The notes under the pieces are model-generated. The model worked only from the letters and a program-made list of their open reading frames with translations, searched no databases and was not told where the DNA came from. Below, piece after piece: positions 1-10,638 of a stretch of DNA of 21,360 nucleotides. The stretch's first letter is position 1. Each line of letters begins with the position of its first letter. Made by a program: the position numbers and the translations under genes. The stretch comes from Spirochaetales bacterium (lineage in GTDB: Bacteria > Spirochaetota > Spirochaetia > JABEVK01): positions 1-21,360 of the forward strand of contig JBAXAI010000053.1 of assembly GCA_037142615.1 (NCBI GenBank), read 5' to 3'.

Positions 1-53
1 TCCTTGCGGAAAAGCCTAACCTACGCAGGAAGATGGGTAGAATTGACGGTTAC
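1..53 (-). mobile_element. Left end (terminal inverted repeat plus tnpA RBS region) of a second IS66-family element, inserted into tnpC of the first
   Basis: Minus strand begins GTAACCGTCAA at 53 (IS66 ends start GTAA). Positions 1-53 match 1415-1467 at 40/53 ungapped, including the AAGGA RBS. The tnpC frame loses homology exactly here. Confidence 0.85.
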
Positions 54-689
54 GCTGATTTCGGCTCCGATACGAAGGAACCCGTGTTGCTGGCGGTAGA
101 ACGGCAGGGGTAAGCCGTAGGCGTCCCCGTGGTCACAGAACTTGGCGGTCCAGATGTGCGCCAGAAGCTGGGCGCTCACGATGCTGCGTGGGAACAAATC
201 AGGCTCACCGGCGGCCCGGATGACGCCAGGCTTGCTCTCGTCTGCCAGTCCCTGACAATGCTTGCAGGCGTACTTGGCGTGGTGATGCCGGTCCACCCAA
301 ACCTGCGCGGGGATCATCACCAGTTTCTCGCTGATGTCCTCGCCAATCTTCGTCATCTGATGACCACACCCGCAGGCCTTCTGGGCGTCTGCCAGGTCAT
401 GGTAGACGTCGGTGCGGGGAAGAGAGTCGGCCAGACGCTTGCGACCGGCCTTGCTGCGCCATTCGTGCTGAGCGATGACGACGGTCTCTATGCTCTCGGG
501 GGTCTCATCGTTCTGCAGGTCTTCAGAGGGCAGATCGTCCTGACCGACGATCTTCTCGCTGGACTTGCCGAACTGCCGCTGGAGAGCCAGCCGGAGTTCT
601 TCACGAAGACGCAGGATTTCGGCTTCCAGCTTGGTGGTGCGGGCCGTGAGCTTTGCGTTCTCCTGTTCCAGCTCGGCGACGCCCTTCAT
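54..689 (-). pseudogene. tnpC: IS66 transposase TnpC, 5' part only (leucine zipper, zinc finger, start of DDE domain)
   Basis: Motifs LRLALQRQFGKSSEK, CGCG..IGEDISEKL, YACKHC, KFCDH..LPFYRQ. About 212 codons before the second IS66 end, versus roughly 500 aa for a full TnpC. Confidence 0.9.
108..128. repeat. 21-bp hairpin element, copy 1 (in-frame insertion in tnpC)
   Basis: GGGTAAGCCGTAGGCGTCCCC. Removing it restores KFCDHLPFYRQ. Confidence 0.85.
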
Positions 690-695
690 AGGAAA

Positions 696-724
696 ATTCT
701 ATCAGAACGGAATTTGCGTGTAAA
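696..724 (-). promoter_or_regulatory. Putative sigma70 promoter directly upstream of tnpC (leaderless)
   Basis: Minus strand TTTACA-N17-TAGAAT with TG extension, then 6 nt to the ATG at 689; no SD sequence. Confidence 0.5.
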
Positions 725-742
725 TTCCTTTTGATGGAATCT

Positions 743-1108
743 TCAAAGATTCGTATAGTGTCGCTCCTGGTGGGCACGCCAGAAGTCGATCCCATCGAGC
801 AACATTGCCAACTGCTCGCTCGAGATCTTTCTGATCTCTCCGACGTCTTTGGGCCACGGGAACCGGTCTTCTTCCAGCCGCTTCTGCCACAGACAAAAAC
901 CGTTGCGGTCCCAGTACAGAATCTTGAGCCGGTCGCGGCTGGGGCCGGCGAACAAGTACAGGCTGCCGTCAGGGGTAAGCCGAAGGCGTCCCCCGGGGTC
1001 ATGCCCGAGTTGGTCACGCACAAGCGCTGCCAAGCCGTTGATTTGCTTGCGCATATCCGTGGTGCCAGGCCGGACAAACACCCGAAGCTGACTCCAGTCG
1101 CGGATCAC
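743..1108 (-). CDS. tnpB: IS66 accessory protein TnpB
   Basis: Motifs TDMRKQINGL, LYLF..RDRLKILYWDRNGFCLWQKRLEEDRFPWP, QLAMLLDGID. Confidence 0.95.
   Translation of the reverse strand: MIRDWSQLRVFVRPGTTDMRKQINGLAALVRDQLGHDPGGRLRLTPDGSLYLFAGPSRDRLKILYWDRNGFCLWQKRLEEDRFPWPKDVGEIRKISSEQLAMLLDGIDFWRAHQERHYTNL
973..993. repeat. 21-bp hairpin element, copy 2 (in-frame insertion in tnpB)
   Basis: GGGTAAGCCGAAGGCGTCCCC, 20/21 identical to copy 1. Removing it gives HDPADGSLYLF, the usual DPxxGxLxxF spacing. Confidence 0.85.
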
Positions 1109-1407: not shown

Positions 1408-1467
1408 AGGATTCTCCTTACGAAAAAGCCTACTTCACCGATCAAGATGGCAAGATTTGACGGTTAC

Positions 1468-2002: not shown

Positions 2003-3133
2003 CTACTTGATCTCCAAGGCTTTGACGAACCCGCCACTTCTGTTGTTGTGGTCGTAGATGATCAGCGGCAAATCCACCTTCGGGTTACAAGATCGCCCGA
2101 TTTCTACGGCCATCGTATGCGGAACCGCAGGAAATACGTGGACTGTCGCATTGGGCCCGTGTCTGGACCTGATTTGGGCGAGAGCCCCTCGGTAGACACG
2201 ACTAAACTCGTCCAGTTGCTCCCTGGTTCGCAGAAAGTGCACCGATGGATTGCTCGCCCCGATTTCCCATATTGGGACATCCTGCCCGAGGACCGAAGTA
2301 ACCCTCTCTGGATCAATAGCTGCGGAAACAGAAAGGATGAGTGCTATTTCCTTTGCCTCAGCCCCCTCTCCGGGAGGCGCCTGGACACTTAGCGATCCGC
2401 CAGTGTCCCGATACCATGTCCATTGATCCGGGTTCCTATGTCGCTGGTACAGCTCGGTAAGAAACAAGTCGGAGAGAAGATGCCCGAGATACGCCAACAG
2501 TGGTTGCGGAGCAAGCGCGAAGACAGAAAGGTGCGCCTTTCGATTCTCAAGAAGTGGACGCACCAGTCTTTCGAATTGGCGAGTCAGATTTCGGCTCTCT
2601 TCCTCCCAAAACCCCGGTTCGTGGTCTCGGGACTCTGACCAGTGCAAGCCCATTTGAATTGGCTCACTTGCAGCTGGATAGCGCCCACTGGAAACCACTG
2701 CTTCAAAAGCCGACACTCCGTTTAGCGGGGAGGCCCGATCCCCAATGTTGGCACCATACAGCACGACAAATGACTGGAGGTCCGGTCCGATACCGGTGAC
2801 TCGTTCGATGCGTTCCTCATGGCTCTTTTTGTAGGCCCTAAGGACCTGAACGCCATACAGTTCGACTTGCTCTCGATCGATCAAGCGATGATGTGTGTCA
2901 CAGAGCAACATGAGGTTCGAAAGATCCGTGGAAAGCTTCGGAGAGAGTTCGGGGTCACCCCGCGGTCCCCCTGGCTTGTCAGCAACAATGTGCGCGACAT
3001 AGGAACTGTTTCCTCGAAACTGGGTCAGTCCGTCTCGATACAGAATCGCGTTGCATCCGGGAAACTCACACCGGCCGCTGGCCTGCGCCCACAAAGCCTT
3101 AACCGTGAACTCTGGTATTTTGGTATTGCTCAC
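2003..3133 (-). CDS. cap5: CBASS effector, HNH endonuclease-SAVED (Cap5-type)
   Basis: N-terminal GRCEFPGC..AHIVADKPGGPRG..NLMLLCDTHHRLID (Zn-HNH). SAVED motifs SVFALAPQPLLAYLG, LYQRHR..WTW, VHVFPAVP..AVEIGR. GTG start at 3133 with AAGGAGG RBS, overlapping the upstream stop. Confidence 0.92.
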   Translation of the reverse strand: MSNTKIPEFTVKALWAQASGRCEFPGCNAILYRDGLTQFRGNSSYVAHIVADKPGGPRGDPELSPKLSTDLSNLMLLCDTHHRLIDREQVELYGVQVLRAYKKSHEERIERVTGIGPDLQSFVVLYGANIGDRASPLNGVSAFEAVVSSGRYPAASEPIQMGLHWSESRDHEPGFWEEESRNLTRQFERLVRPLLENRKAHLSVFALAPQPLLAYLGHLLSDLFLTELYQRHRNPDQWTWYRDTGGSLSVQAPPGEGAEAKEIALILSVSAAIDPERVTSVLGQDVPIWEIGASNPSVHFLRTREQLDEFSRVYRGALAQIRSRHGPNATVHVFPAVPHTMAVEIGRSCNPKVDLPLIIYDHNNRSGGFVKALEIK

Positions 3134-3732
3134 GCTGGCCTCCTTTGATGTGCTGCTTGGAGACGCGGCAGACAACAGAGTTTGTACTTCTTGCCGCTTC
3201 CGCAATAACAACGGGCGTTTCTGCCAAGTCGGGAGACTAGTTTCATCGTGTCGTGAATCTTCTCGTCAATGCCATTCTGGTGAGAGTATTCTCCCCAGGG
3301 GGCTTTCTCGTTGAACGTTTCCCAGTATGCGTGCCAAGCAAAGTAACTGAAGACAACTTCGCGTACAAATCTGACGACAGACATCCTTTGCACTTCAATT
3401 GGAAGAAAGATTCCAACACAGCAGGACCCATCGCCGTTAACATGCGCGTCCAGACACATCGCTAGCTGACGTTCCTTGATAACCGTTTCGAGCTTTCCAC
3501 CAACCTCCCAAACCTTAAAGAGGCCGCAGAGGTCTCGCTGATTCAGGTCAATCAGAACACAAAAACAGCCCGAGAAACGTCGGTACCTTCGGTCGGGGAT
3601 CCCGTTCAAATGGAGTTGTGCCCCATCGAAGTGAGCGTCGAACGACATCTCTCCTCGGAGCGTGTTCGATGCTCCTTCCAAGTAAAGATCGGGAAAGGCC
3701 TCCTGGATGGAGGCCAGTTCGTTCGCGGTCAT
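3130..3732 (-). CDS. CBASS ancillary protein: prokaryotic E2-like domain plus C-terminal SEC-C metal-binding motif
   Basis: HVNGDGSCC resembles the E2 HxN..G.xC catalytic strand; PWGEYSH; GRNARCYCGSGKKYKLCC is a SEC-C motif. Lies between the CD-NTase and effector. Start is ATG 3732 or GTG 3741. Confidence 0.75.
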   Translation of the reverse strand: MTANELASIQEAFPDLYLEGASNTLRGEMSFDAHFDGAQLHLNGIPDRRYRRFSGCFCVLIDLNQRDLCGLFKVWEVGGKLETVIKERQLAMCLDAHVNGDGSCCVGIFLPIEVQRMSVVRFVREVVFSYFAWHAYWETFNEKAPWGEYSHQNGIDEKIHDTMKLVSRLGRNARCYCGSGKKYKLCCLPRLQAAHQRRPA

Positions 3733-3737
3733 GTCTA

Positions 3738-4670
3738 TCACCAATGAGCGAATGGCTTGTGAGGGATCGTCGTCTGGGAGCGCTCCGAGGAGCCTTGGAT
3801 GATCGTGCCGAATGAGTCCCCGAACACCTTCCTCCACTTTCGAATACTCTCGTTCCGATCCTGTTCGTTGTAGGCCGCATCGACTTTCTCGCGATAGTCA
3901 TTCACTTTGTCCCGAAAGTTACTGTACTTTGACCGTTCCCAATACCGATTGAAGTTCTCCCATGGTAGCACCGGATTGTTGACGGCTGGCATCGACGGGC
4001 TGGCCTGTAACTTATCGTCCAACCGATCCATTAGGATCTTGAAGGCGGTCGCGAGATCGTCAAAGTTGTCTCCACCAACACAGTTTCCCAACAAAGTTGA
4101 CAATAGTATTGATTTGACGGAGAAGTTGCTACTTCGGTCCCGAAGGTACTTGAACAGGCGAGTCGCCTTCTTGAGATGACTGTTCGTAACTCGGTTCTTA
4201 TCATTGAACCAGTCGCGAAAACCAGTGCCATCAGTCTCTTCGAACGAATCGGTATCGTAGTTGCAGATATAAACCCGGCCGTCCTTCTCGATTGCAGGAA
4301 CGAGATCGAGGTGGAAGTCGGCCTTGTAGTCAATGGTCATGCACCTGGTTTTTCGTCGAACGATGTCTTGGTAGTTGCCATTCTTTTGGAAGACTGCTAG
4401 CAGCGACGTGATGTAGTCCCGCGCGGTCCAGCTCGCCTGTTCCGCCATATAGACCAAGAGATCAGCGTCGAACTCGTCGGTATCCCTAACGGGTTTGATG
4501 ATTGTCCCCAATGCGTAGGAACCTTGACGTTCAGTCTTACGGTAACCATCCAGGCAGTCCTTCAGGAGTCGACTGATGATTTCAGTCTTCTCGTCCAAGG
4601 TTTTGATCCTGGAAGGATTGAGGTTGACCTCTTCGTTCAGAAAGGTCTGGAAGTCATTGTGGTGCTTCAT
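3738..4670 (-). CDS. CBASS cyclic oligonucleotide synthase (CD-NTase/SMODS nucleotidyltransferase)
   Basis: Motifs QGSYALGTIIKP..EFDADL, KTRCMTIDY..FHLDLVP, NPVLPWENFN, WRKVFGDSF. ATG 4670 with GGAG RBS; adjacent to a SAVED effector. Confidence 0.93.
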   Translation of the reverse strand: MKHHNDFQTFLNEEVNLNPSRIKTLDEKTEIISRLLKDCLDGYRKTERQGSYALGTIIKPVRDTDEFDADLLVYMAEQASWTARDYITSLLAVFQKNGNYQDIVRRKTRCMTIDYKADFHLDLVPAIEKDGRVYICNYDTDSFEETDGTGFRDWFNDKNRVTNSHLKKATRLFKYLRDRSSNFSVKSILLSTLLGNCVGGDNFDDLATAFKILMDRLDDKLQASPSMPAVNNPVLPWENFNRYWERSKYSNFRDKVNDYREKVDAAYNEQDRNESIRKWRKVFGDSFGTIIQGSSERSQTTIPHKPFAHW

Positions 4671-4711
4671 GATCAGCTCCAAATGCTCAGTGCAGGGTTA
4701 TCCCCGGACTC

Positions 4712-4971: not shown

Positions 4972-6150
4972 ATGATGGGAGATAGACTTCGACAACGGCG
5001 GCTTGCCGTGGGGATGTCACTACAGCAGGTCGCGGACGCTCTGATCGCAGCTGGCACGCAGATTACCCGTGCCACCCTATCAAAGTACGAGCTAGAGCAA
5101 AGTTCACCGAATGCTCTAGTACTTCGCGAGATCGCAAAAGTCTTCGGCGTGAAGACCGACTACTTTTTTTCTGAGACCCGTACAGAAGTTCAGTGGTTTG
5201 CCTACCGTAAACGGTCCAGCATGTCGCAAGCCGACCAGGCAAGCCTCCAAGCTAGCGCTATCGAAGCCTTGGAACGACGGGTCAAGGCTGAGGAGCGATG
5301 CGGTGTGGAACCCACGGGGCTTGGCGAACAGAATAGGGAACAGTGCGAAACATTTGACCAAGCCGAAGACTTGGCAATGGGGTTGCGTGATCACTGGGGA
5401 CTAGACCTGCAACCGATTGGGTCTCTGATCGACCTCCTTGAGTCCAAGGGCTTTGTGATGATACCCCTTGCCACAGGTGAGCTCAAGTTTGATGGGTTGT
5501 CGGGACTGTTGAACGGCGTTCGATCAGTCATCGTGTACAAGGAAGATGTAGTCACGGACAGACTTCGATTCACAGTTGCCCATGAGCTGGCCCACCACTT
5601 TTTGAAAGCTGATGATCCAAGTGTCGAGGAGAAGTTGGCCCACCGATTTGCCGCCGCGTTCCTGATGCCTCAAAAGCGATTGCGCCACCATTTGGGATCA
5701 AATCGGACCCGCCTCAGGTTGGAAGAACTCGTCCTCTTGAAGGAACAGTATGGGCTAAGCCTTCACGCTCTCGTTTACCGTGCCGGCGATGCTGGCATTA
5801 TTTCCGACCGGACTCGTACGGAGTTGTTCCAGTTTTTCGGTCGCATGGGTATGCGGAGGGCTGAGCCGGGCCGCTACAACGTGACCGAGAAACCGGACGA
5901 ACTCAAGCGCATTTTGCTGAAAGGTGTTGCCGAGGGCCAGATCACCGAGGCCCAGGCAACCGAGCTCGACCCCGAGTTTCCTGCCGAAAAAGAGAGGAGC
6001 CAGACCATGCCTACTTGGGATCTCAGAGAACTCCTGGCGCTTCCGCCAGAAGAACGCGACAAGGTTCTTGAAGACGCGGCGGCCTCGGCCGCGTCACTAT
6101 ACAATCACGGTGGTCCTTTGGGCGATTTGGAAGTACTGGATATTCAATGA
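4972..6150 (+). CDS. Xre-family HTH fused to ImmA/IrrE (DUF955) Zn-metallopeptidase, with an extra 47-aa C-terminal tail
   Basis: LRQRRLAVGMSLQQVA..ITRATLSKYE (HTH_3); RFTVAHELAH (HExxH) and EEKLAHRFAAAFLMP. Confidence 0.92.
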   Translation: MMGDRLRQRRLAVGMSLQQVADALIAAGTQITRATLSKYELEQSSPNALVLREIAKVFGVKTDYFFSETRTEVQWFAYRKRSSMSQADQASLQASAIEALERRVKAEERCGVEPTGLGEQNREQCETFDQAEDLAMGLRDHWGLDLQPIGSLIDLLESKGFVMIPLATGELKFDGLSGLLNGVRSVIVYKEDVVTDRLRFTVAHELAHHFLKADDPSVEEKLAHRFAAAFLMPQKRLRHHLGSNRTRLRLEELVLLKEQYGLSLHALVYRAGDAGIISDRTRTELFQFFGRMGMRRAEPGRYNVTEKPDELKRILLKGVAEGQITEAQATELDPEFPAEKERSQTMPTWDLRELLALPPEERDKVLEDAAASAASLYNHGGPLGDLEVLDIQ

Positions 6151-8137: not shown

Positions 8138-9283
8138 ATGATTCCCCGTTTGGCCGAAGCTCGGATCCGGTCGCTGGCACGCCAGTTTCCTATTGTGGTG
8201 GTCACGGGTCCCAGGCAGTCGGGCAAGACGACCTTGGTGCGTGCTCTGGCGCCCGAAAAGCCCTACTACAACCTAGAGCGCCCCGATGTGCGCCAGCGCG
8301 TGGCCGACGATCCGCAGGGGTTCTTGGCCAGTTGCGCCGAGCGTGGGGCCATCGTGGACGAGGCGCAGCGCTTCCCGGAGCTGGGCTCGTGGTTGCAGGC
8401 CTATGTCGACGAGCACCCCGGTGCAGGGCAGTTCTACCTTACCGGGAGTAACCAGCCGCTGCTGCGGACGCAAGTGACGCAATCGCTGGCGGGCCGTGCG
8501 GCACTCGTCAATCTGCTCCCGCTGACGGCCGGCGAACTAAGCTCCGCTGGCCTCGCCAATTCCCTCACCAACACTTTCCTGGCCAAGGGCTTCTATCCTC
8601 CGCTGTACGACAAGCCGTTTGTCGCTGCCGATTGGCTGGCGCAGTATGTGCAGACGTACTTGGAAAAAGACCTGGTGCTCCTGGCCCAGCTCAAGGATCT
8701 GTCGGCCTTTCAGCGGTTCCTGAAACTGTGCGCTGGTCGGACAGGGCAGGTGCTCAACCTGTCGGACCTGGCTCGCGACGCGGATGTGTCGCACACCACA
8801 GCCAAAAACTGGCTGTCACTCCTCGAAGCCTCGTTCCTGGTGTTCTTGCTGCCGCCGTGGCACGCCAACTACCAGAAGCGCCTGGTGAAAAGCCCCAAAC
8901 TGTACTTTTACGATGTGGGCCTGGCCGGTTGGTTGACCGGCATCCGTTCACCTGAGCAATGGGACAACCACCCCCTGCGCGGAGCGTTTTTTGAGACTTT
9001 GGTGGTGGCCGACTTGGTCAAAACCTCGCTGGCGAGCGCCGACCCTTCGCAGTGGTACTTCTGGTCCTCACCCTCGGGCCTGGAAGTCGACCTGGTGGAA
9101 CAGCGCGGACCCGAAGTCTGGGCCCACGAAATCAAGTCGAGCGCGACGTTCAAGCCCGAACACGTCAAAGGGCTGCTCGCTTGGAGCGAACTGTCGGGCG
9201 TACCGCCCCACCGCCTGTGCCTGCACAACGACGGCAACGAGCGGTTGGAGTTCCGTGGGGTGAAGGTTGGTCCGTGGAAGTGA
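8138..9283 (+). CDS. AAA_14 ATPase with DUF4143 (PD-(D/E)xK-like) C-terminus
   Basis: Motifs GPRQSGKTT, IVDEAQR, LTGS, SLAGR, KSPKLYFYDVGL, EVDLV..EIKS. Confidence 0.92.
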   Translation: MIPRLAEARIRSLARQFPIVVVTGPRQSGKTTLVRALAPEKPYYNLERPDVRQRVADDPQGFLASCAERGAIVDEAQRFPELGSWLQAYVDEHPGAGQFYLTGSNQPLLRTQVTQSLAGRAALVNLLPLTAGELSSAGLANSLTNTFLAKGFYPPLYDKPFVAADWLAQYVQTYLEKDLVLLAQLKDLSAFQRFLKLCAGRTGQVLNLSDLARDADVSHTTAKNWLSLLEASFLVFLLPPWHANYQKRLVKSPKLYFYDVGLAGWLTGIRSPEQWDNHPLRGAFFETLVVADLVKTSLASADPSQWYFWSSPSGLEVDLVEQRGPEVWAHEIKSSATFKPEHVKGLLAWSELSGVPPHRLCLHNDGNERLEFRGVKVGPWK

Positions 9284-9285
9284 GG

Positions 9286-10638
9286 CTAGCGGCCGCATCC
9301 CTCCAGCAATTCCAACAAGCGCCCCGCAAAATACAGGGGCAGTGAAACGAGCTCGGTAGTTCCCGTTTCGGAAACCAGGCTTTGTGTGGACGGAAGGTTG
9401 AGATCGAACCTCACAGCCACCGGGGGCTTCTTGGCACCCACGAACTGCTGAAGCGACTTGAGGGTTCCTGCCTTGCCTGACTTCACCTCGATCGGGACAA
9501 CCTGTGTTCCTTGGGCGATCAGAAAATCGAGCTCGGCGTTGTTGGAGCGTCCTTCGCGCAGCCAATAGTGAAGCTCGGGCAGCTGCTTGCCACCAAACCG
9601 ACCCAGCAACTCTTGCCCCACAAACTGCTCGGCCAGGGCGCCCTCGTTGAGCAGTCTGCGTTCATCCAGCGACTGCGTCTGTGGCCAGGTCATGCCGAGA
9701 ACCAGGCTGACCAAGCCGATGTCGAGAAACAGCAACTTGAACGTCGACGAGTCTTGACCCGCACCCAGAGGGACCCCCGAACCGTCAGAGTGGTACACCG
9801 GAGTACAGATGCGGGCCTTGCACAGCAGGTCGAGGGCCGTGCGCACCTCGCCGCTTCGGTCGTCGGGGGAAAGGTGTGTGAACTTCACTTTGCGACCCAA
9901 CTGGGCAGGCACCGTGCGGAAGATCCGTTGCAAGCGCGCCAGCTGAGCCTGGCGGGCGTACTTGGCAAAGTCGTCGACATAGGTGTCGAGGATGGTCCGC
10001 TGAACCTCGGCCACGCGATCGAACAGTTTGGTATCGAGCCACGTCTGTACCGCTTCGGGCATTCCTCCCACGATCAGAAACTCTCGTTGCCTGTGCAACA
10101 GCGCGTTGTGACGGCTCACGGGCAGGGGGTCGCCCATCTTCCAGTCAAGGTAGAACCGGTGAAGTTCGGCATCGGACGCCAAAAGGAACTCCGCAAACGA
10201 GAGCGGCCCCAGGTGAAGGTAGGTGATGCGTCCCACCGGCATCGAAAACCTGTGGTCAGCCAACGCAAACTCGAGGAGCGAGCCCGCAGCGACGACCGCA
10301 AGTTCGGGCATGTCTTCAAAAAAGTACCTGAGGGCAGCGATGGCCTCGGGTACCGCCTGGATTTCGTCAAGAAACAGCAGCGCAGAACGCTTTTCGCGGA
10401 TTTCGCCAGCCAGACCCGCCAGTTCGCCCAGGATGCGGTTCAGATCACCGCTGGCAAACGCGTCGCGGAGGAACAGGTGCCGCTCGAGGTTCACCTCGTG
10501 GAGCGCCAAGCCTTTGTCCCGGGCGAAAAGCCGCACCAGAGTCGACTTGCCGACTTGCCGTGCTCCCCGGAGCACCAGAGGCTTGCGAGGGCTCGATCGA
10601 AACCAGAGGTCCAGCTGTTTCTGCGCATCCCTCTCCAT
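9286..10638 (-). CDS. AAA_14 ATPase with DUF4143 domain (450-aa subtype)
   Basis: Motifs GARQVGKST, FLDEIQ, AAGSLL, SMPVGR, VGGMPE, FLDIGL, AELDFL..PIEVKSG. Confidence 0.92.
   Translation of the reverse strand: MERDAQKQLDLWFRSSPRKPLVLRGARQVGKSTLVRLFARDKGLALHEVNLERHLFLRDAFASGDLNRILGELAGLAGEIREKRSALLFLDEIQAVPEAIAALRYFFEDMPELAVVAAGSLLEFALADHRFSMPVGRITYLHLGPLSFAEFLLASDAELHRFYLDWKMGDPLPVSRHNALLHRQREFLIVGGMPEAVQTWLDTKLFDRVAEVQRTILDTYVDDFAKYARQAQLARLQRIFRTVPAQLGRKVKFTHLSPDDRSGEVRTALDLLCKARICTPVYHSDGSGVPLGAGQDSSTFKLLFLDIGLVSLVLGMTWPQTQSLDERRLLNEGALAEQFVGQELLGRFGGKQLPELHYWLREGRSNNAELDFLIAQGTQVVPIEVKSGKAGTLKSLQQFVGAKKPPVAVRFDLNLPSTQSLVSETGTTELVSLPLYFAGRLLELLEGCGR

Follow-up and report, generated by a model that had tools for sequence, protein, structure and literature searches.

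Two in-frame 21-nucleotide hairpins in a spirochaete IS66 element, probable members of a REP-like repeat family

Why does a single insertion sequence (IS) carry the same 21 bp twice, in two of its genes and in two different reading frames? The stretch of DNA that raises this question, hereafter the window, is the whole 21,360-base contig C53 of the genome of a Spirochaetales bacterium (here G000; 4.27 Mb, 76 contigs, 61% G+C). The repeated block, GGGTAAGCCGNAGGCGTCCCC, lies antisense to tnpC and tnpB of one IS66 element (Table 1). We find both copies to be insertions relative to all homologues of the two proteins and to a related, empty tnpB, and they are very probably inserted copies of a family of small hairpins that resembles the repetitive extragenic palindromes (REPs). 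Taken as a whole, the explanation that we favour, and consider reasonably probable, is that of genus-specific REP-like hairpins, present as inserted blocks, that would have spread through a reaction of the type carried out by HUH enzymes or REP-associated tyrosine transposases (RAYTs).

Both copies directly follow a CAG triplet and are read in different frames, exactly as the original prediction for this locus had described them. Copy 1 encodes GDAYGLP and falls between the His and the Leu of a conserved motif of TnpC (DH/LPFYRQ), which now reads ...KFCDH-GDAYGLP-LPFYRQ; copy 2 is read in another frame of the element, encodes GGRLRLT and turns TnpB into ...HDP-GGRLRLT-PDGSLYLF. Two or more matches to the 21-mer occurred in none of 100 dinucleotide-preserving shuffles of the window, even when 3 mismatches were allowed. 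Each copy is predicted to fold as GGGG.(.GCC...GGC.)CCCC, with a G of the target completing the outer stem (Table 1); at the position of the codon that supplies this G to copy 1, Leu is found in 117 of 120 homologues. In an AlphaFold2 model of TnpB (mean predicted local distance difference test score over the model, 65.6), the insert (residues 39-45) lies in low-confidence coil, which weakly suggests that it is accommodated in a loop.

That the two blocks were inserted is most directly seen from protein comparisons. The seven columns of GDAYGLP are empty in each of 120 full-length TnpC homologues, which reach 85% identity, and GGRLRLT is missing from all 119 other TnpB homologues, the sole carrier among the 120 being P0001, the window's own protein. 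The closest relatives of this IS66 (proteins P0002-P0004 and P0121-P0126) are 81-85% identical. These 7-residue inserts are the sole window-specific insertions in either protein. It had been proposed that removal of exactly 21 nt would restore the conserved spacing in both genes. In tnpC it does so cleanly: the junction is exact to the base, between the His and the Leu codon, and excision gives back KFCDHLPFYRQ, with WTAKFCDH-LPFYRQQH present letter by letter in 4 of the 120 homologues. In tnpB, excision restores the conserved spacing; residue and junction are considered below. Contigs from four public sequencing runs belonging to four studies (X1, X2, X5 and X9), which we aligned to positions 1-1500 of the window, contain the inserts unchanged at every site that they cover, site 1 in X1, X5 and X9 (0 differences) and site 2 in X2 and X5; the samples with this IS66 are freshwater ones. 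A 165-nt contig of X1, by comparison, is 93% identical over positions 879-967 and continues as an insert-free tnpB reading RDQLGRDPLD (translated by hand). The empty state of tnpC is read at the protein level only, because no close DNA relatives of this IS66 were found: 12 genomes of the same taxonomic family gave short matches only, the lineage was not found in four congeners, and the best TnpB in the class (401 genomes) is 62% identical. Neither outcome that the original prediction had named as speaking against it was observed: the close homologues do not all carry the 7-residue inserts, and both further copies and empty alleles exist.

Might the blocks instead be an assembly or adapter artefact, in a metagenome-assembled genome broken into 76 contigs, or an old peptide linker specific to this IS66 lineage? 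We give these possibilities practically no weight. The same sequence was recovered in 4 runs from 4 studies, in the genomes of two other species and in 11 further metagenome contigs, and homologues of up to 85% identity lack the insert; both ideas are thus refuted.

What, then, was inserted? When G000 was searched for the same ends enclosing any content, sister elements with other, fully complementary stems emerged. They share an architecture composed of a G/C outer stem (mostly GGCG/CGCC or GGCC/GGCC, but GGGG/CCCC in the 21-mer), an invariant, asymmetric internal loop with TAA on its 5' and GT on its 3' side, a variable but compensated inner stem and an apical loop that is mostly GNA. A strict scan for this pattern (outer stem / TAA / inner stem / loop / inner stem' / GT / outer stem') yielded 50 matches in G000, as compared to 1-3 for each of 7 permuted tag pairs. 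These members measure 22-33 nt, outer stems included, and have inner stems of 3-7 bp that start with G in 49 of the 50; ascertainment by the tags alone raises the number of matches to 82. In 26 distinct members of 26 nt that had been picked by their tags alone, 88% of the inner stem forms Watson-Crick pairs, whereas 500 partner shuffles averaged 62.5% and never exceeded 70.8%. One to three Watson-Crick pair types occur per inner-stem position, two or three of them at 4 of 5 positions, and 13 of the 26 have a GAA loop. The 21-mer is the smallest member, with a 3-bp inner stem and the rarer outer stem. The idea of a tiny mobile element holds insofar as discrete blocks have been inserted and copies exist in relatives, yet the 21-mer does not stand alone: it represents one of the stem variants in a family that numbers over 50 in G000. 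Its loop N had been taken for the sole variable base; this is true of the four true copies found in 61 genomes with 2 mismatches allowed (T, A, G and A), while one more variant, T17G, is present in 104 kb of related loci.

The family is genus-specific and expanded in G000. The tag pattern matches 51 times in this genome (control, 1) and 5, 3, 3 and 4 times in its four congeners; it has no match in 7 other genomes of the taxonomic family, and single chance-like matches without hairpins occur in 2 of 29 other families. Of the strict-scan members, the two in IS66 are the only ones located in frames with homology to proteins; the remaining 48 were judged by their position relative to stop-to-stop frames, in a genome of 61% G+C. 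Many members form arrays, often at contig ends, with units about 94 nt apart in C21 and C37, the latter contig alone containing 17 hairpins. On either side of the array units are a CGGAAACTGCA-like sequence and another hairpin, whose loop contains GTAG, and the units have the mosaic look of bacterial interspersed mosaic elements (BIMEs). Two tandem members with 7-bp stems (GGATCGC...GCGATCC) are located directly past a stop codon where C49:25171-25227 joins C8:1-50; the assembly breaks inside them.

Constant ends are a further hallmark of the inserted blocks. We tallied 18 distinct flank contexts of GGGTAA-hairpin-GTCCCC elements, six of which are variants of the family B repeat described below and not independent. 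In all 18, the ends are identical and there is no target duplication; none is visible at either IS66 site, in agreement with the original prediction. The immediate 5' neighbour is always G (18/18), preceded by A at -2 in 12 and by C at -3 in 13 contexts. The proposed preference for CAG targets thus survives as a 5' bias, the triplet itself being found in 7/18 contexts and CNG in 13/18. A G at +3 (window positions 131 and 996 and the 16 other contexts) is likewise present in 18/18. As for length, 12 contexts hold elements of 21 nt, three of 23, two of 25 and one of 30. A length in multiples of three that preserves reading frames, as had been suggested, is therefore not a property of the family: sister members of 23, 25 and 30 nt exist, only the 21-nt variant can sit in-frame, and both IS66 frames stayed open thanks to the fortuitous 21-nt length of this stem variant. 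Filled and empty sites also occur outside IS66. A repeat of about 380 nt contains a 23-nt sister hairpin in contig C39 of G000 and twice in C16 of congener G002, and lacks it in C8 of G002 and in C29 of congener G001, where the empty site reads CGGCAG/GGGC.

Where else does the exact 21-mer occur? A scan of genomes from 185,579 species confined it to two congener records, with one copy in G001 (N = G) and one in G004 (N = A), and viral contigs contained none. Metagenome contigs added 16 matches on 13 contigs. One of these (L018) is the window's own sequence, and another (L017) has the flanks of G001 at its copy; of the remaining 11, nine match parts of G000 at 65-75% identity and therefore come from relatives, and L011 and L016 have no or only a short match. 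Further copies, as had been expected, do therefore exist, though in the congeners and metagenome contigs rather than in the remainder of G000. In the metagenome contigs, the 21-mer sits within larger mosaic repeats. Family B is a longer hairpin, GGTCAGGCG...CGCCGGTG, that holds the 21-mer in its loop; seven units do so, three more have variant left flanks, two have a CAAC loop instead, and no family B repeat was found in G000. Family A consists of GAGGGGGTAGCGGAAGACCCCGCAGG, a variable hairpin and CCGAGGAGGCTGGAGCGAGGGGCAGGCGCCCC; at least 10 copies with differing central hairpins are present in G000, and in relatives (L012, L003) the 21-mer fills the slot. In a further repeat, one copy (L020, - strand, about 100 nt past its 21-mer) has half a 21-mer (CCGAAGGCGTC), the full 21-mer being present in L010:60-80. 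The two differ by 17 nt between two CCG triplets, a difference that could reflect either decay by deletion or stepwise growth.

How might such hairpins move? That the blocks are insertions, that the family exists, that its ends are constant and that its stems covary are observations; we infer, and have not observed, movement of the hairpins themselves. Each copy very probably entered tnpC or tnpB as a discrete block directly 3' of a G, mostly within CNG, and without target duplication. In the route that we tentatively envisage, spread would occur in trans, through structure-specific cleavage and joining of single-stranded DNA of the HUH/RAYT type, by an enzyme that may recognize the TAA/GT irregularity of the hairpin and cut at the flanking G. 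The TnpAREP protein of E. coli offers a precedent, as it acts on single-stranded DNA only, requires a REP tag plus a stem irregularity and can transfer strands, according to the portion of PMC3333891 cited here. Each of the genus's 5 genomes (G000 and G001-G004) has RAYT-like genes (PF01797), as does 1 of 7 other genomes of the taxonomic family; with 77.9 bits, the G000 protein comes just below the cut-off (80) of NF047646, the model for REP-associated tyrosine transposases. An HUH-type mechanism as such nevertheless falls somewhat short of an even chance in our estimate. The original prediction had suggested looking for a nearby RAYT or IS200-type HUH transposase, IS110 or reverse transcriptase flanked by the repeat; no HUH, IS110 or reverse-transcriptase gene so flanked was found.

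In the region C3:49500-54500 (loci L034 and L056), the RAYT-like gene and a BrnT toxin gene adjoin a cassette resembling a diversity-generating retroelement. The cassette encodes a reverse transcriptase (RVT_1), a bAvd-like protein and a 559-aa target with an Lcl_C domain; the IGNLTSQ motif of the reverse transcriptase is typical of such enzymes. A family A repeat lies just 3' of the reverse transcriptase gene. A second, degenerate RAYT-BrnT pair is located at C5:80959-81747.

Several observations weigh against inserted hairpins that spread by a RAYT-like activity. The exact 21-mer is not found elsewhere in G000, even with up to 4 mismatches. Excision from tnpB leaves an Ala where 114/119 homologues have Leu or Phe and 1/119 has Ala, and the junction is unclean, since the window reads AG + 21-mer + CGG where the empty X1 copy has GAGAG; the resulting 26-mer is identical to one in the family B repeat. 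Contigs of the four runs showed no 21-nt gaps or joints at either site, a weak negative as contigs drop rare variants. C-GNA-G mini-hairpins had been noted to be unusually stable, and although the claimed fold is predicted, its nearest-neighbour energy (-4.1 to -5.1 kcal/mol) is equalled by 20-30 of 200 shuffles; because shuffles fold as well, support for the hairpin comes from family covariation and not from energy. No TAA/GT hairpin occurs near RAYT-like genes at any of 7 genus loci within about 2 kb on each side, or less at contig ends. G007, a genome outside the genus, has RAYT-like genes and no hairpins, and the phyletic match between the two rests on one genus. Finally, a flank with G at -1 and CNG does not match the cleavage between C and T described for E. 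coli TnpAREP in the cited portion of PMC3333891.

The tnpB junction in particular could also be explained without any dedicated enzyme, if the blocks were copied by template switching during replication or by microhomology-mediated repair, with stable mini-hairpins stalling forks and short G/C runs serving as microhomology. The stretch shared by tnpB and family B extends over 26 nt (AG + 21 + CGG), and five target bases appear to have been replaced. Likewise, CGGCAG precedes the 21-mer in tnpC, L004 and L019 alike and is also the flank of the empty G001 site; L020 has a half copy (CCGAAGGCGTC) at the place of the full one in L010, the family A slot holds differing hairpins, and no enzyme gene is linked. 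However, such events predict ragged ends and carried-over repeat flanks, whereas the ends GGGTAA...GTCCCC are identical over 18 contexts with unrelated flanks, the tnpC junction is base-exact between two codons, and the IS66 copies bring only 2-3 bases of family A or B flank. We therefore regard template switching as unlikely. The weight that this route and an HUH-type reaction leave over goes to other routes.

Alternatively, a larger element with the ends GGGTAAGCC... and ...GGCGTCCCC could have been excised imprecisely and have left the 21-mers behind as scars. The 21-mer indeed resembles two short inverted ends joined by 1-3 bases, with no target duplication. Yet pairs of such half-sites 40-6000 nt apart number 1 in G000 versus 0.67 expected, the one being the two IS66 copies themselves, and shorter half-sites stay at chance level (68 vs 74 and 253 vs 263). 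Nor would a scar explain why members with other stems share the architecture and covary, which makes this origin very improbable. A different proposal holds that the hairpins are functional RNA or DNA signals under selection, such as protein-binding sites or transcript stabilisers, with the IS66 copies as a by-product or as regulators of the transposase. The constant TAA/GT internal loop and the compensated stems would fit, many copies lie just outside long frames (one pair directly past a stop codon), and RNA would permit G-T pairs. But Rfam has no match to family A, and no Rfam family was matched at E up to 1 across 11 loci; the GNA-loop strand is antisense to the IS66 mRNA; and a function in place leaves unexplained why the same 21 nt are found in two conserved protein motifs. 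We consider selection for a signal improbable as the explanation, and it would in any case be compatible with spread by insertion rather than a rival to it.

Returning to inserted REP-like hairpins, why are two of them in one IS? Given that the remaining 4.27 Mb contain no exact 21-mer, it is very unlikely that two hits would fall within 1.4 kb at random. The likeliest scenario is that the IS66 acquired its copies elsewhere or earlier and carried them along. They were probably picked up before a second IS cut into tnpC: contigs of X5 and X9 continue left of position 54 as RQDMVNWTMK (read by hand), the normal continuation of TnpC, and an insert-bearing tnpC uncut by the second IS therefore exists. 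Acquisition may have taken place in another host, because the exact 21-mer is otherwise absent from G000 and common in the repeats of related species. Local re-insertion or a preference for single-stranded intermediates of the IS are possible alternatives. More speculatively, a hairpin of 21-22 nt may come near the lower size limit of what a cell's single-strand DNA machinery is able to mobilize, and the insert-bearing IS66 may act as its vehicle between species, a parasite of a parasite. We judge this quite unlikely; if true, it would explain why the exact 21-mer here occurs only in IS66 and yet in related species' own repeats, and it would mean that a hairpin can settle in-frame in a conserved transposase core without destroying the gene.

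To which known elements do these hairpins come closest? As defined in the cited part of Di Nocera et al. 2013 (PMC3733652), REPs are stem-loops of 20-40 bp with constant unpaired tags and compensated stems, divided into GTAG and CGTC super-families, and some copies lie in-frame in genes, sometimes two per gene. The TAA/GT family shares with them small repeated stem-loops, constant tags and compensated stems, as well as sub-families, clusters, arrays, in-frame intragenic copies, a RAYT-like gene in the genome and perhaps, as judged mainly by stop-to-stop frames, a location mostly outside genes. Beside the stem it has a GTAA reminiscent of GTAG tags, with CGTC on the 3' side. GTAA is, however, not among the GTAG variants listed in the cited part of PMC3733652, and the GTAG/CGTC format does not apply. 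The stems and loops also do not fit the four CGTC families described there, which have 8-9 bp stems with A/T first pairs, 4-5 nt loops and a CCA tail. Further differences are that the constant part is an internal loop within an outer stem rather than a free end, that the RAYT-like genes are not flanked by the hairpins as in classical REPtrons, that the copy number is modest (about 50-80), and that both intragenic copies have transposase genes as hosts. Because it fails the GTAG/CGTC tag and format definitions and has no REPtron, we file the family as a new REP-like one, not as a member of a named one. We found no published account of a TAA/GT hairpin family, although the supplementary REP/REPtron lists of PMC3733652 might hold a similar spirochaete family.

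Other small elements invite comparison as well. The TAA/GT hairpins resemble the small dispersed repeats (SDRs) of cyanobacteria, by description only, in being very small, palindromic and inserted in repeats and genes. SDRs reportedly measure 21-27 nt, are palindromic and dispersed, and appear as insertions in other repeats and genes; we know of no enzyme for them. The present host is a spirochaete and not a cyanobacterium, and a structural family with variable stems differs from fixed sequences. SDR1-8 (Elhai et al. 2008) are reported only in Nostocaceae in the passages cited here (PMC5861425; also cited, PMC3116915). Rickettsia palindromic elements (RPEs), too, are palindromic repeats lying in-frame in genes. 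Those of the RPE-1 type are 100-150 nt long, far longer than the 21-mer. Their host is an obligate intracellular proteobacterium, and they have no described TAA/GT internal loop. In the cited part of PMC3733652, RPE-4 and RPE-6 are classed as CGTC REPs, and RPE host genes probably stay functional. As in IS200/IS605 elements and TnpAREP/BIMEs, according to the cited portion of PMC3333891, there is no target duplication, a mosaic array and perhaps, to judge from 18 contexts of which several are variants of one repeat, a short conserved flank, and the HUH enzymes of IS200/IS605 recognize irregular hairpins in single-stranded DNA, an irregularity that the TAA/GT hairpin also has. Unlike IS200/IS605, it consists of a single two-tier hairpin instead of two different subterminal ones, has no transposase inside or beside it, and is flanked by G at -1 or CNG instead of TTAC, TTGAT or the C-T site of TnpAREP. 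Miniature inverted-repeat transposable elements (a length of 70-300 bp, terminal inverted repeats of 15-30 bp and a target-site duplication, in the cited part of PMC3733652) differ from elements of 21-30 nt with no duplication in 18 contexts. Lastly, the 21-mer and most other members have a C-GNA-G apex, which is the mini-hairpin motif GCGNAGC / GCGNNAGC of work on oligonucleotide chemistry rather than on a genetic element (PMC13037366); the nearest-neighbour fold gives no sign of the motif's stability bonus.

The host element itself is an IS66 by its tnpA, tnpB and tnpC, which follow in order with IS66 domains (Pfam, NCBIfam), tnpC being truncated at position 54. The listed frame of tnpC runs from 21 to 689, homology stops at 54, and the first 212 codons are present. 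The gene is cut after ...GAEIS by the second IS, and alignment to full-length homologues ends at ...AEIS. The same 53-54 nt, the end of the second IS, also terminate contigs C63 and C68 of G000, and contigs of the public runs have several different loose ends at 53/54. Next to the IS lies gene debris: a 106-nt piece at 1872-1977 is 82% identical to tnpB 837-942 in the opposite orientation, with the protein-level match to TnpB extending to 2011, and a short frame at 1701-1889 resembles, by eye, the C-terminal end of a sugar-nucleotide dehydratase. An operon resembling a cyclic oligonucleotide-based antiphage signalling system (CBASS) adjoins the IS66 (2003-4682, - strand) and comprises an SMODS/DncV-like nucleotidyltransferase (3738-4682), a SEC-C motif protein (3130-3837) and a protein that has a SAVED domain and matches HNH weakly (2003-3211). 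Farther along the window are a gene with a helix-turn-helix and an M78 peptidase (IrrE-like) domain (4972-6150), followed by a pair of genes for AAA_14/DUF4143 ATPases (8138-9283 and 9286-10638).

Table 1 Location of the hairpins, the host IS66 element and related features. Positions refer to the window unless a contig of G000 is named.
Feature	Location	Strand	Remark
Hairpin copy 1, GGGTAAGCCGTAGGCGTCCCC, loop N = T	108-128	+	antisense in tnpC
Hairpin copy 2, GGGTAAGCCGAAGGCGTCCCC, loop N = A	973-993	+	antisense in tnpB
Flanking G completing the GGGG/CCCC outer stem of copy 1	107	+	part of target Leu codon
Flanking G completing the outer stem of copy 2	972	+	sequence context
tnpC, 5' part: leucine zipper, zinc finger, start of DDE region	54..689	-	Pfam zf-IS66, LZ_Tnp_IS66; NCBIfam transpos_IS66, partial
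IS66 tnpB, 121 aa (most homologues 114-115 aa)	743..1108	-	Pfam TnpB_IS66, 9e-33; NCBIfam IS66_TnpB
IS66 tnpA (orf1), 100 aa	1105..1407	-	NCBIfam IS66_ISAeme5_TnpA, 38.5 bits (cut-off 28)
Left end of IS66, starting GTAACCGTCAA on the - strand	1408..1457	-	from GTAACCGTCAA on, alignable to the second IS's end
End of second, multi-copy IS66-family element inserted in tnpC; contig breaks here	1..53	-	alignment
RAYT-like gene	C3:49509-50027		
Family A copies	C12:89095-89164, C14:126, C73:478 and 1927, C3:50753-50832, C68:1424-1456, others		
Hairpin arrays	C21:1-400, C37:36380-37211, C30:43250-43650, C72		one TAA/GT hairpin per unit

What do these hairpins mean for the biology of such repeats? To our knowledge, the spread of REP-like hairpin repeats has never been shown in vivo, and most families of this kind are too numerous and too old for clean insertion sites. 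The sites described here are unusually clean, as both insertions hit protein motifs for which 120 homologues each reveal the empty state. The family is also small and young-looking, with about 3-80 copies and one or two RAYT-like genes per genome of the genus, and these low numbers make a biochemical test with 22-nt oligonucleotides feasible. Intragenic REP copies have been described before, and the element is otherwise of an ordinary kind. That a transposase gene can carry a REP-like repeat in-frame bears on the annotation of IS elements and on 7-residue 'linkers' in proteins; the main value of the family, however, lies in providing a system in which the movement of hairpins can be put to the test.

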